Source of the DNA: a candidate division WOR-3 bacterium
GTDB lineage: Bacteria > Hydrothermota > Tepidihabitantia > SM23-42 > JAOAFX01
Assembly: GCA_039802265.1 (NCBI GenBank)
Contig: JBDRWI010000021.1
Span: 1 to 33,598 of the forward strand
Direction of reading: 5' to 3'
Length of the DNA stretch: 33,598 nt
The position numbers and the translations under genes are program-made. Positions 630-29,732 of this stretch are shown one piece after another. Every line of letters begins with the position of its first letter. Position 1 is the stretch's first letter. The notes under the pieces are model-generated. The model had not been told where the DNA came from. It ran no database searches and worked only from the letters and a program-made list of their open reading frames with translations.

Positions 630-1050
630 GATTCAGTGTGTCCGTTTTGGCAGAACGCTTTTAATCGGTGAATTCTCGGCCGGGTCTTTTACGATTAAAT
701 TTAAAAAAATGTTCCGCGGCGAATCTCATTCAGACCATCCAGTTTAAATTTCTCTTTGGAGGATTGATACTCAATGTAATCGACATTTTGTCGTTGGAGT
801 ATTCAAGGTGTTTAAATTCCTCATTTATCCCATCATGGATTCTGTTGTTTTTTTAAAGTAGCACCGCTTGCGGCGCGGAAAAGTCTTCGGATTTAAAATA
901 ATTTTCAACATAGATCGAAGTCTGCCACTTGATTTTACGACAAAATCTTGATGGTAGGGATAAAACGGATGATGCGCTTATATGTGTACCTGAGGATTAC
1001 TTCTTCTTTGATGAAATTTATGTGTTTTCACGGAAAAAAATGTAATATTA

Positions 1051-1087
1051 CCCCAACCTTTTTCCTCTCCCATCAAAGGGGGAGGGA
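1051..1087. repeat. Partial copy of the G/C-tract hairpin motif (CCCCAACCTTTTTCCTCTCCCATCAAAGGGGGAGGG)
   Basis: Aligns with 17726-17765 of the right repeat copy. Lies just upstream of the SPFH promoter. Confidence 0.6.
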
Positions 1088-7990: not shown

Positions 7991-8036
7991 TAAACCAGAC
8001 TACCCTTTTTTTGTCTAAAGTTTAAAAGGAGAAGTG

Positions 8037-8369
8037 ATGGCAAAATTCTGGAAAGATTTTTCCAAATGGCTGGAAGATGCATCAAGGGTTCTGAGTAAAG
8101 AGGCCGGTGACCTGACGCTGAAGGGAAAGTTGAAACTGGAGGTCTTTGAGTTGAAAAGGCGATTGCAAGAACAGTACAAAGAACTCGGTGTAGCAGTTTA
8201 CGAGCAGATCTCAAAGAAGTCTGGTTCAGTTGTAGTAACTCCTTCAATAAAAGGCATTTTGTCAAAGATCAAAAGAATCCAGAAAGAAATAAAAGAAAAG
8301 GAGAAATATTATAAAAAGATAGGGGAAGATAGCTGCAAAAAGACTTATGGTAACGCGAAAAAGGAATAA
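8037..8369 (+). CDS. Hypothetical coiled-coil protein (about 110 aa)
   Basis: ORF with AAAGGAG RBS; no family motif. Its last 30 nt lie inside the left inverted-repeat copy. Confidence 0.45.
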   Translation: MAKFWKDFSKWLEDASRVLSKEAGDLTLKGKLKLEVFELKRRLQEQYKELGVAVYEQISKKSGSVVVTPSIKGILSKIKRIQKEIKEKEKYYKKIGEDSCKKTYGNAKKE

Positions 8370-8567
8370 AAATGGTGATTAGAAAAAGGGCTGTAAGATT
8401 GATTGGTGATTCAAAAAATGCAGATGCATCATTTATGGTGCTTAAAATATCGTAAGTTTTACCTCCTTCTTGATGGGGGAGGATAAAGGTGGGGGTGAAA
8501 GATAAAATACCCCCTCACCCTTGCCCTCTCCCACAGGGGGAGAGGGATTTGATATATCCGAGGAGGT
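8340..8567. repeat. Left copy of a 230-bp inverted repeat with three GC hairpins (8462-8482, 8488-8519, 8524-8546), ending in GAGGAGG 5 nt before hsp20 ATG
   Basis: Manual alignment with the reverse complement of 17652-17890 gives about 5 substitutions and 2 indels. Contains a 27-codon ORF (8372-8455) with its own AAGGA RBS. Confidence 0.9.
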
Positions 8568-8571
8568 TGAT

Positions 8572-9021
8572 ATGGCAGATAAACAATTAAAGCGATGGGA
8601 CCCGTTCAGGGAATTGATCTCCCTGAGGGATGATATGGACCGTTTGTTCAGTTCGTTTTTTGGAAGACCATCGGTTGAAGAGATGGAAGGGGTCTGGGCG
8701 CCGGTGATTGACCTTGAAGAGGATAATGAGAACTTTCTGGTTAAGGCAGAACTGCCTGGATTGAAGAAAGAGGATATAAAGATTTCGGTACGGGGTAACC
8801 TACTCACACTGACCGGTGAGCGAAAACAGGAGACAGAGACGAAGAATAAGACCTATCACCGGGTAGAGAGGTTTTATGGAAAGTTTTCAAGGACGATTAC
8901 CCTGCCCAGTGAAGTGGATGCGGATAAAGTGAAGGCGAGTTATAAGGATGGTCTGCTTACCATCACCCTGCCCAAACCCGAGACAATGAAGCCCAAGGAG
9001 ATTGAGATTGAGGTGAAGTAA
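8572..9021 (+). CDS. hspA: Small heat-shock protein, Hsp20/alpha-crystallin family
   Basis: Alpha-crystallin-domain pattern (FLVKAELPGLKKEDIKISV...LTITLPK). The true ATG is at 8572; the ORF-track extension from 8521 is repeat sequence. Confidence 0.85.
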   Translation: MADKQLKRWDPFRELISLRDDMDRLFSSFFGRPSVEEMEGVWAPVIDLEEDNENFLVKAELPGLKKEDIKISVRGNLLTLTGERKQETETKNKTYHRVERFYGKFSRTITLPSEVDADKVKASYKDGLLTITLPKPETMKPKEIEIEVK

Positions 9022-16354: not shown

Positions 16355-17644
16355 TTATCTTATCTTCCTCTTTCTCTTCATTTTCTTCATTCCAGAACTG
16401 CCGATATCCTTGCGGTAATACATTCCCGGAAAGTGAATCTTTTTAATTTCCTCATAGACTTTCTGTTTGGCGATCTTCAGATTGTCCGCTGCGTAGACGA
16501 CATTAAGTACCCTGCCGCCGGCGGTGATGAGTTTAGAATCGTCCAGTTTTGTTCCGGCGTGGAATAGAAGTGTTTGCGAATCAAGCGGTTCTTTTATCTG
16601 GATTTCTTCTCCAACTTTGTAGTCAAAAGGATAACCAGCCGAGGCAAGGACAACACAGATTGACCATAAATTCTTTATTTTAACCTGGAGTTCTTGAACT
16701 TGATTTTCAATTACGGCAAGGAAGATGTCAATTATGTCGTTCTCAATTATGGGCATCATTGCCTGGGTCTCAGGGTCCCCGAAACGGCAGTTGAACTCCA
16801 ATACCTTCGGTCCGGATGGAGTAAGAATAAGTCCGGCATATAAGATTCCTTTATAGACAATACCACAATCATGGAGGGTAAGGATGGTTGGCTGAATTAT
16901 TACCTGCTGGATAATACTGGTGATCCGCCGATTTGTGGGATATGGGGAATAGGCACCCATCCCACCGGTATTTGGTCCCCGATTGCGGTCGTAGAGTTTC
17001 TTATGATCCTGGGCAGATGGCAAATAGGCGATCTTCAAACCATCGGTAAGGGCAAAGACCGAACATTCCTGACCGCTCAAGAACTCTTCAACAACGATCT
17101 TTTTCCCTGCCTCACCCAGTTTGTGCTGAACGAATATCTCGTCAATAACCTTTTCGTATTCATTCTTGTTGTTCACAATGAAGGTTCCCTTGCCGCCGGC
17201 AAGTCCGGCTGCCTTTACCACAACAGGAAATTCATTTATCGACTTGGGGTATTTTAATGCCTGTGCCGCGCTGTCGTAGATCTGAAATTTAGGGGAGGGA
17301 ATGCCATACTGGTGCATAAATTCCCGGGCAAAGGATTTATCTGCCTCAATCCGGCTGGCATTCTTTGTTGGTCCGAAAATTTTTAGTCCTCTTTTGTTGA
17401 ATTCATCAACAATTCCCAGGGCAAGGGGTAATTCCGGTCCCACCACAGTCAGGTCAATGTGATTCTGCTGGGCAAATTGGGCGAGCCCGGTGATATCAGT
17501 GGGTAAGATGTTAACACAGGTGGCAAGTTTGGCAATGCCCGGATTGCCGGGCGCCGCATAAATCTTCTTCACCTTCCTTGATTTGTGAATCTTCCAAACG
17601 AGGGCATGTTCCCGTCCGCCACTGCCAATGACCAGAATATTCAT
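16355..17644 (-). CDS. purD: Phosphoribosylamine-glycine ligase
   Basis: MNILVIGSGGREHALVWK N-terminus and ATP-grasp core. The ORF-track start at 17698 is repeat read-through; the true ATG at 17644 is preceded by GAGGAGG. Confidence 0.9.
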   Translation of the reverse strand: MNILVIGSGGREHALVWKIHKSRKVKKIYAAPGNPGIAKLATCVNILPTDITGLAQFAQQNHIDLTVVGPELPLALGIVDEFNKRGLKIFGPTKNASRIEADKSFAREFMHQYGIPSPKFQIYDSAAQALKYPKSINEFPVVVKAAGLAGGKGTFIVNNKNEYEKVIDEIFVQHKLGEAGKKIVVEEFLSGQECSVFALTDGLKIAYLPSAQDHKKLYDRNRGPNTGGMGAYSPYPTNRRITSIIQQVIIQPTILTLHDCGIVYKGILYAGLILTPSGPKVLEFNCRFGDPETQAMMPIIENDIIDIFLAVIENQVQELQVKIKNLWSICVVLASAGYPFDYKVGEEIQIKEPLDSQTLLFHAGTKLDDSKLITAGGRVLNVVYAADNLKIAKQKVYEEIKKIHFPGMYYRKDIGSSGMKKMKRKRKIR

Positions 17645-17651
17645 TTTAGAT

Positions 17652-17890
17652 ACCTCCTCGGATATATCAAATCCCTCTCTCCCTGTGGGAGAGGGCAAGG
17701 GTGAGGGGGTATTTTATCTTTCACCCCCACCTTTATCCTCCCCCATCAAGGGGGAGGATAAAACTTACGAAATTTAATAATATTTTAAGCACCGTAAATG
17801 GTGCATCTGCATTTTTTGAATCACCAATCAATCTTACAGCCCTTTTTCTAATCACCATTTTTATTCCTTTTTCGCGTTACCATAAGTCTT
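17652..17890. repeat. Right copy (inverted) of the 230-bp repeat; contains a perfect CCTCCCCC-ATCAA-GGGGGAGG hairpin
   Basis: Reverse complement aligns with 8340-8567 at about 97% identity, with a 10-bp insertion. Ends in the GAGGAGG used as purD's SD on the minus strand. Confidence 0.9.
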
Positions 17891-19589: not shown

Positions 19590-19704
19590 TGGATTGAAGA
19601 TTTTCTCCCGTGGTCAGTTATACTGGTAAGAATAAACAACAAGAATGTGATTTAACATTCTGGATTGACAAATCAATAAAATTGTATAGAATTAGACTTA
19701 AATC

Positions 19705-29527: not shown

Positions 29528-29732
29528 TTTTCCTCCTCAATCATTGAGGAACTATTATATAAATTATAACCCCGATGTCAATATCACTAAGACCTGGTTA
29601 CTACTCACTTTTTTCTGCCATTTGATAGGAGTTTTGATTCTACCGGATTAAGGTGGGGGTGGAAAATCAACAATCCTTTCAAATATTGCCAACTTAGGTT
29701 TCAAAAAGTAGGGAGGGTCAATAGAGGGAATA

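Follow-up and report, generated by a model that had tools for sequence, protein, structure and literature searches.

A dispersed non-coding repeat with a BoxC-like three-hairpin core adjoins Shine–Dalgarno sites upstream of hsp20, purD and other genes in a candidate division WOR-3 bacterium

Structure of the locus

We analyzed the hairpin-rich sequence upstream of the hsp20 gene in a 33,598-nt stretch of genomic DNA of a candidate division WOR-3 bacterium (contig JBDRWI010000021.1 of assembly GCA_039802265.1, positions 1 to 33,598 of the forward strand), hereafter the window. This sequence was found to be the interior of one copy of a dispersed repeat, two copies of which are present in the window (Table 1). 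The left copy lies between the 3′ end of an open reading frame (ORF 8034-8369) and the Shine–Dalgarno (SD) sequence of hsp20, which opens an hsp20-htrA-sigma cluster. The right copy occupies the spacer between pcrB, located upstream of it, and purD, which is on the minus strand; 8340-8567 and 17652-17890 constitute an inverted pair with 95-98% identity. The unit is 222-245 nt long among its copies and consists of an AT-rich 5′ part of about 120 nt holding a small ORF, a 90-nt G/C-rich core of three hairpins (H1, H2, and H3), and a 15-nt tail. The limits of the left copy, 8340 and 8561, are homology boundaries and are the same in eight copies.

The first-pass annotation of the window had described the small ORF, three hairpins, a U-rich tail, and the SD as a possible leader-peptide attenuator; on re-reading of the window all these features were present, the U-tail being weak, and the coordinates and sequences given for them were correct. 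The 92-nt core folded more stably than its dinucleotide shuffles, with z-scores of -3.65 for the left and -4.73 for the right copy. Alternative pairing of the G5 and C5 tracts, proposed in the same annotation, is real: in the minimum free energy (MFE) structure of the left copy the 5′ arm of H1 pairs with the 3′ arm of H3. Each G-tract has a C-tract complement, and the alternative pairings arise because the arm sequences are repeated. The hsp20 SD sits in a loop of the MFE structure.

Table 1. Features of the repeat copies and related fragments in the window (RBS, ribosome-binding site; CM R1, covariance model described in the text).
Feature	Position	Strand	Remarks
AAGGA, RBS-like	8361-8365	+	read directly from the sequence
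27-codon ORF MVIRKRAVRLIGDSKNADASFMVLKIS, judged non-coding	8372-8455 (ATG 8372, TAA 8453-8455)	+	within the AT-rich 5′ half
H1	8462-8482	+	CCTCCTTC / TTGAT / GGGGGAGG; 8 bp including two G.T pairs
H2	8488-8519	+	GGTGGGGGTG ... CCCCCTCACC
H3	8524-8546	+	CCCTCTCCC / ACAGG / GGGAGAGGG
Tail ATTTGATATAT after H3, then GAGGAGG	8560-8566 (GAGGAGG)	+	hsp20 ATG at 8572
Left copy of the dispersed repeat, 222 nt	8340-8561	+	flanked by ORF 8034-8369 (3′ end) and the hsp20 SD
GGAGGT, SD of hsp20	8562-8567	+	single occurrence in the empty site and in the filled site
G/C-rich three-hairpin core, BoxC-like double triplex-motif module	8460-8549	+	90.3 bits with CM R1
TM_ECO pattern, exact match	8512-8546	-	pattern from PMC4666352; 1 match versus 0 expected in shuffles
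Second triplex-type motif: hairpin CCTCCTTC/GGGGGAGG and mirror segment GGTGGGGG	8462-8497	+	read directly from the sequence
AU-rich tail ATTTGATATATCCGA, 15 nt, joining H3 to the SD	8547-8561	+	conserved in 8/8 copies
Right copy of the unit, 233 nt (10-nt and 1-nt insertions)	17658-17890	-	in the pcrB-purD spacer
GGAGGT, SD of purD	17652-17657	-	purD ATG at 17644
Three-hairpin core, right copy	17670-17759	-	95.3 bits with CM R1
Degenerate solo half-element CCCTCCCCC-TTTGAT-GGGAGAGG-AAAAA-GGTTGGGGT	1049-1087	-	weak CM match over 996-1089, 17.5 bits, E 0.04
Fragment GGATTAAGGTGGGGGTG, linker and mirror segment, without hairpins	29645-29661	+	below the CM threshold

Insertion of the unit at the hsp20 and purD loci

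In close relatives, whose Hsp20 proteins are 95% or 79-81% identical to that of the window, the gap between the upstream small ORF and hsp20 is only 1-17 nt (one such junction reads ...AAAGGAGGTTGATATG). The empty hsp20 site of the relatives reads ...AAA/GGAGGTTGATATG, the slash marking the junction, and in the window 222 nt (8340-8561) stand between AAA and GGAGGTTGATATG. The pcrB-purD gap is 11, 43, and 39 nt in relatives versus 279 nt in the window. A third empty site was found at the ortholog of an M14-peptidase gene that carries a copy of the unit in this species; it reads ...GAA/GGAGTACAAATG (GAA/GGAGT). Both window copies are thus shown to be lineage-specific insertions. Close relatives lack the unit at their hsp20 and purD loci, so that a regulatory leader ancestral to either gene is excluded. 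The GGAGGT before hsp20 is either the native site beside the insertion or a right-end flank shared by the copies.

The insertion also altered the upstream gene. The last ten codons of ORF 8034-8369 (KTYGNAKKE*) are supplied by the inserted unit; the encoded 111-aa protein has no Pfam match. In the relatives the equivalent ORF ends at or within the hsp20 SD, 1-17 nt before the hsp20 start, and this tight spacing or coupling has therefore been lost in the window.

Relatives that lack the unit (contig L122, 10450-10962, and also L123-L125) upstream of hsp20 have a different insert, about 510 nt long, in the hsp20-htrA spacer, which measures 75 nt in the window. This insert holds a nested triplex-motif-like structure, CCCCCTCAC..CCCTCTCCCC-GTTAAACC-GGGGAGAGG-ATAA-GGGTGAGGGG, and further GC hairpins; in L124 and L125 a 70-aa ORF was called in it. 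In a close relative the hsp20 cluster is preceded, at a distance of about 1 kb, by a gene for a 486-aa reverse transcriptase (RVT_1; L122:7448-8908, L123:7448-8908); its flanks differ between the two contigs, and it may thus be a mobile retroelement.

Copies of the unit and their position beside Shine–Dalgarno sites

Further copies were located via the annotated 41-codon ORF of the right copy; their contexts were then fetched and aligned. At least eight distinct copies are present in this WOR-3 species, 92-100% identical to each other and with identical ends in the alignment of eight. Four versions of the 41-aa ORF are annotated in a single metagenome-assembled genome (MAG) (ABIL70_04300, ABIL70_06135, ABIL70_07980, and ABIL70_08020). 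All eight copies begin with (A)AAGACTTATGG and finish with ATATATCCGA, followed by GGAGGT, which is decayed in one of them. In seven of the eight the end of the unit adjoins GGAGGT at a distance of 3-7 nt from the ATG of a co-directional gene. These genes are functionally unrelated and encode Hsp20, PurD, the aconitase small subunit, two Por_Secre_tail proteins, a CarboxypepD_reg/OmpA protein, and an M14 peptidase. The remaining copy points toward the 3′ end of phoU, a gene convergent with it, and its SD has decayed to GAAGAGAT. GGAGGT occurs 13 times in the window; 5-6 of these sites are SDs.

Terminal inverted repeats (TIRs) were not found: the ends AAGACTTATGG... and ...ATATATCCGA are not mutually inverted. 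Neither were target-site duplications (TSDs) seen in the flanks of the eight copies. The AT-rich 5′ half gave 0 matches in the metagenome scan, and in a blastn search against about 250 fetched loci it matched contigs of the same species only.

The arrangement, a homologous upstream region before non-homologous genes, is that of putative mobile promoters; a promoter scan of the unit, however, was empty and revealed no sigma-70-type promoter inside it. In one copy (L262) a perfect TTGACA-17-TATAAT promoter is located about 30 nt upstream of the unit (L262:2411-2439), and this copy is therefore transcribed as a 5′ untranslated region (UTR) from a native promoter. A near-consensus sigma-70 promoter, TTGACA-16-TAGAAT, also precedes a tRNA gene of the window (19664-19695); judging by these two sites, this WOR-3 lineage uses canonical promoters.

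One further assembly, GCA_039802285.1, contains unusual junctions at the repeat (L135:1-30, L263:84-115). The left flank of the OmpA-like copy is joined there to purD, the pcrB-side left flank is joined to a gene for a 914-aa Por_Secre_tail protein, and the purD-side copy has mixed alleles of single-nucleotide polymorphisms (SNPs). These junctions are either mis-assemblies across the repeat or products of real recombination between copies.

The three-hairpin core

The G/C-rich intrastrand triplex motif TM_ECO, earlier named BoxC and PIT, is defined by the pattern CCCTCNCCC-N3-6-GGGNGAGGG-N3-GGGNGAGGG (PMC4666352, Holder et al. 2015). The left copy matches this pattern exactly, and the right copy matches it with one stem mismatch, which the definition permits. 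The core is built of two hairpins with one homopyrimidine and one homopurine arm, each beside a G-rich segment mirroring its purine arm in the G*G-C, A*A-T, T*A-T code: GGGTGAGGG mirrors GGGAGAGGG, and GGTGGGGG mirrors GGGGGAGG. The middle hairpin results from complementarity between the two mirror segments. The pair of inverted TM_ECO motifs between hrpB and mrcB of Escherichia coli has the same layout: hairpin / G-arm...C-arm / hairpin.

A covariance model (CM R1) was constructed from 40 family members of other phyla and the two window copies; it contained no E. coli sequences. Both window copies were recognized with E about 1e-15, and the E. coli BoxC pair (NC_000913.3, 164544-164632) was matched with 71.6 bits (E 2.4e-11). 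The reverse strands of the cores also scored 60-70 bits (61 for the left copy) because the module is a quasi-palindrome.

A scan with the H2 pattern gave at least 118 loci in representative genomes. Most of the matches listed had flanks in the order H1 - ATTAA - H2 - linker - H3, and the hosts among them included Syntrophaceae/Thermodesulfobacteriota, Atribacterota, Nitrospiraceae, Brocadiaceae, Syntrophomonadaceae, Thermotogae, Dehalococcoidaceae, Rhodospirillales, and others. The half consisting of H1, ATAAA, and GGTGGGGGTGA was found at no fewer than 120 metagenome loci, often alone, at a GC content from 25% to 65%. Only two viral contigs matched the H2 pattern, and carriage by phages was rejected; one match on an IMG/VR contig (L132:82-166) is a recognizable three-hairpin module with 41 bits and has weaker copies nearby.

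Covariation across homologues, named in the first-pass annotation as a check on the hairpins, was found as compensatory changes in the stems of H1 and H3. At the outer pair of H1, 37 sequences have TA and 27 have CG; at that of H3, 55 have CG and 12 have TA; and at one inner pair of H3, 63 have TA, 5 CG, and 2 GC. The pyrimidine arm of H3 and the segment before this hairpin co-vary as a mirror repeat in at least four sequence classes (segment and arm, respectively: CCCTCACCC and CCCTCTCCC; CCCTCCCCT and TCCCCTCCC; CCCCCATCC and CCTTCCCCC; CCCTCCCT and TCCCTCCC). Such pairs are perfect mirrors within their own sequence in 14/33 cases versus 5.7% of cross-class pairs. We read this mirror covariation as the signature of a triplex motif, which hairpins alone do not explain.

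Pattern, layout, and model scores place the core in the BoxC / PIT / TM_ECO class of bacterial interspersed repeats, in line with the DNA-level repeat-element role that the first-pass annotation had preferred. The core shares with BoxC, PIT (Hoyne & Maher 2000, 2002), and TM_ECO the exact pattern, the homopurine and homopyrimidine arms, and the combination of mirror and inverted symmetry. As with BoxC/TM_ECO, pairs are inverted in the hrpB-mrcB manner, the covariance model cross-detects the E. coli element, and the elements are intergenic and multi-copy, with no orientation bias across genomes (PMC4666352). There are also differences. TM_ECO was reported in 262 proteobacterial genomes, whereas this core occurs in candidate division WOR-3 and many uncultured phyla. 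In the window the left hairpin, CCTCCCCC/GGGGGAGG with the mirror segment GGTGGGGG, stands in place of a second CCCTCNCCC unit. BoxC is a family of 56-bp repeats, of which E. coli has about 32 copies (PMC2267715). Unlike BoxC, the core of the window forms part of a longer, species-specific unit that has fixed ends and abuts SDs; the distances of BoxC to ORFs vary from 10 to 310 nt without a trend, and SD adjacency is unreported for BoxC. According to PMC4666352, single-stranded TM_ECO DNA forms a stable triplex in vitro (circular dichroism and nuclear magnetic resonance), as shown for the E. coli sequence only; within double-stranded DNA it is a duplex, and no footprint was found in vivo.

In Syntrophaceae UBA2188 and close relatives the same three-hairpin core was found in 24 near-identical composites of about 195 nt with sharp limits, between two hairpins of the CCCCGCAGC..GCTGCGGGG type that resemble imperfect inverted ends. 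No conserved flank was found beside these composites, which are a separate lineage-specific vehicle for the same core. At seven other loci a second palindrome (for example CCTGCCTGCCGGTAGGCAGG, or CTGCCTTCGCCGAA..GCAGGCAGG) is located inside the loop of H1 or H3, which suggests nested insertion of another hairpin repeat.

Orientation and decay of the hairpins

Among the flanking ORFs of 71 core copies in other genomes, 18 were arranged co-directionally, 20 anti-directionally, 7 divergently, and 3 convergently. Core copies were hardly ever found inside a long ORF, and then only inside a likely spurious one. The two strands of the right copy have equal folding energies (-51.9 and -52.4 kcal/mol), and apart from the fixed wobble of H2 the family contains 30 G.T versus 19 A.C mispairs; neither the folding energies nor the mispair counts gave a clear signal of RNA-strand asymmetry. 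Within the species the hairpins decay at the rate of the whole unit. In the L257 copy a 12-nt insertion breaks H1 and H3 is weakened, and the divergence of the core is the same as that of the remaining unit. The core therefore behaves as a palindromic repeat at the DNA level.

The strict sense orientation in this species belongs to the longer unit with its GGAGGT flank. In one respect this favours the leader described in the first-pass annotation: relative to genes the whole unit is strongly strand-specific in this species and always abuts an SD. It is therefore transcribed as a 5′ leader, although this leader is not regulatory.

Small ORF and regulatory signals

Among the copies the small ORF has 27, 41, or 45 codons, and its stop lies before H1, between H1 and H2, or beyond. 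The changes among copies include V2L, V8I, S14F, D18V, A19V, S20P, M22T/I, L24I, and S32R; comparison with the L257 copy gave about 4 nonsynonymous to 2 synonymous changes, consistent with neutrality. For the right copy, two nonsynonymous changes (S20P, M22T) and a length of about 41 codons had been noted before and were confirmed; the insertion described there as in-frame is 10 nt long, however, and shifts the frame past the stop, and the ORF therefore becomes 41 codons long. Neither a Pfam match nor a regulatory codon run was found in the small ORF. It is not a conserved peptide but accidental content of the AT-rich 5′ part.

H3 together with AUUUGAUAUAU was flagged as terminator-like in a lax scan, the chance expectation for the scanned region being 1.3 such sites. 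Only three U residues are present in the U-tail (AUUU), and a U-tail conserved across the core family was not found. At the gathering threshold Rfam models identified only a tRNA in the whole window, and a local scan by E-value returned only sub-threshold miRNA-like hairpin noise. H3 on the minus strand (8524-8546) matched positions 75-97 of RF01771, the enterobacterial rnk leader, below threshold (15 bits versus a gathering score of 50); the RF01771 model may include a BoxC-like hairpin.

Several other roles were considered and rejected. An RNA thermometer for hsp20 is contradicted by the position of the SD in a loop of the MFE structure and by the absence of the unit in relatives. The sequence CCCCCTTGAT within the hairpins resembles the -35 box of a sigma-32 promoter; a sigma-32 or sigma-70 promoter there was rejected, as no -10 partner follows and the promoter scan of the unit was empty. 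Coding read through the hairpins, with the 3′ arm of H1 as SD and a GTG start in H2, is contradicted by the H2 loop, which varies across the family by lengths that are not multiples of 3.

Discussion

We conclude, with a probability of roughly 0.78, that the feature upstream of hsp20 is the interior of one copy of a species-specific, non-autonomous, non-coding repeat that inserts beside SD sites and has a BoxC-like core. The class to which the core belongs is known; only the exact SD adjacency of the copies before unrelated genes is unusual. The unit would be a non-autonomous mobile DNA element inserting beside GGAGG(T) in the manner of target-specific single-strand transposons. Selection would then remove insertions at coding GGAGGT sites, leaving copies at SDs in fixed orientation. 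The hairpins would be the repeat's own palindromic, triplex-prone structure, probably recognized or used in mobilization, and no on/off switch of hsp20. Where the unit is transcribed in a 5′ UTR, its core may fold into three stable stem-loops that leave the SD free.

Several features resemble those of palindrome-associated transposable elements (PATEs): TIRs and TSDs are lacking, GGAGGT stands at the right end in 7/8 copies, the empty sites read AAA/GGAGGT and GAA/GGAGT, and H3 forms a subterminal hairpin 15 nt from the right end. At the left end no hairpin is obvious. A classical miniature inverted-repeat transposable element was rejected on the same lack of terminal inverted repeats and target duplication. 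PATEs derived from IS200/IS605 insertion sequences share with the unit this lack of TIRs and TSDs, precise ends, a fixed short sequence at one end of nearly all copies, a stable hairpin about 15 nt from that end, and an orientation fixed to the target strand. They differ in having a hairpin near the other end as well and a Y1 transposase; no such transposase was identified here, in a genome that was not scanned for one, and membership of the unit among PATEs is not established. To our knowledge, GGAGG(T), of 5-6 nt, has not been described as an IS200/IS605-type target. Transcribed intergenic repeats in operons and 5′ UTRs include ERIC, the Correia elements of Neisseria, and the pneumococcal BOX and RUP elements. 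These are similar to the unit in that they are small, structured, multi-copy, co-transcribed with their neighbours, and often located in intercistronic spacers, and differ from it by inverted ends and/or TA duplications and by other sequences; no such family is known to abut SDs systematically.

Some observations weigh against the interpretation as an SD-adjacent-inserting repeat. A transposase or other mobilizing enzyme was not identified, a whole-genome scan for one not having been made. The empty sites number only three, and that of purD is too diverged for an exact junction. GGAGGT may be the target or the last 6 nt of the element, and the weaker SDs of the purD relatives (AAGGA, GGAGT) fit an element that carries its own SD. 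The hairpin lies near one end only, which is unlike the ends of classical IS200/IS605 elements. All copies come from MAG assemblies, one of which shows chimeric junctions across the repeat. Finally, selection for a functional RNA leader would likewise predict that 7/8 copies are in sense orientation and that the SD is retained.

Such a leader is the main live rival, although we consider it rather unlikely. The unit would be a portable 5′ leader with a strong SD of its own (GAGGAGGT) and three stem-loops that protect or tune the downstream mRNA, that is, a stabilizer or a translation-initiation cassette. Consistent with this, the seven sense copies place the SD 3-7 nt from an ATG, the SD is intact in all copies but the one that lacks a downstream gene, the SDs of the purD relatives are weaker, two SNPs in the 5′ half and a CC>TT change in H1 retain G.U pairing in the sense RNA, and the L262 unit is transcribed, being placed between a consensus promoter and an SD. 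However, insertion adjacent to GGAGGT combined with selection against coding insertions yields the same pattern, given 13 sites with 5-6 SDs among them; moreover, the hairpins are not protected, as the broken H1 and weakened H3 of L257 demonstrate, pair-breaking G>A changes in the sense RNA are as frequent as C>T, and the core has no orientation preference across phyla. PIT elements had neither promoter nor terminator activity in E. coli, according to the account of Hoyne & Maher (2002) given in PMC4666352. A leader in the stricter sense, the leader-peptide transcription attenuator proposed in the first-pass annotation, in which translation of the 27-codon ORF would select among the hairpins and H3 with its U-tail would stop transcription before hsp20, has next to no probability left. 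The unit does resemble attenuators of the trp, his, leu, and pheA type in having a small ORF, preceded by an RBS-like AAGGA and followed by several alternatively pairing hairpins and a short U-containing tail before a gene, and H3 was flagged as terminator-like. Unlike them, it is missing in orthologs and stands before seven unrelated genes, its ORF varies in length and stop and drifts as if neutral, regulatory codons and a strong U-run are lacking, 1.3 terminator-like sites would arise by chance in the region scanned, and Rfam gave no match; a riboswitch-like expression platform fares no better.

The inverted copies could alternatively constitute a recombination module in which homologous recombination flips the hsp20...purD segment; this we regard as very improbable. 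The arms are 95-98% identical and 9.1 kb apart, a contig of a sister MAG (L001; 9343 nt) begins and ends within the two copies, one assembly has chimeric junctions, and TM motif loci were found to be more rearranged between E. coli strains, linking these motifs to local genome rearrangement (PMC4666352). Against this, all recovered hsp20 and pcrB-purD junctions were in the window orientation, so that no evidence of inversion of the 9.1-kb segment was found among them, short-read assemblers yield breaks and chimeras at a multi-copy repeat of 230 nt, and with at least six more copies elsewhere the inverted pair is incidental. The ends of L001 inside both copies are the signature of a repeat that short-read assemblers do not cross.

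Returning to the SD-adjacent-inserting repeat, we tentatively suggest, as an idea with odds clearly against it, that the unit represents a new kind of non-autonomous element homing to the SD (GGAGG), with the BoxC-like hairpin/triplex core recognized in single-strand transposition. If so, it would give the first mechanistic handle on the spread of BoxC/PIT/TM repeats, the function and mobilization of which have lacked an explanation since the 1990s, and would explain the near-identical cores in WOR-3, Atribacterota, Thermodesulfobacteriota, and Proteobacteria.

For the organism, the results do away with a regulatory annotation that was false: neither hsp20 nor purD has an attenuator here. The annotated 41-aa "hypothetical proteins" ABIL70_04300, _06135, _07980, and _08020 are translations of the repeat, which also causes breaks and false joins in short-read MAG assemblies at its copies. 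For the family, the BoxC/PIT/TM class is far wider than the Proteobacteria and Cyanobacteria of its first description, and it is modular, comprising solo units, paired units, and nested insertions. With filled and empty sites, identical ends, and a fixed GGAGGT flank, this species provides a clean natural experiment from which the insertion mechanism could be derived.

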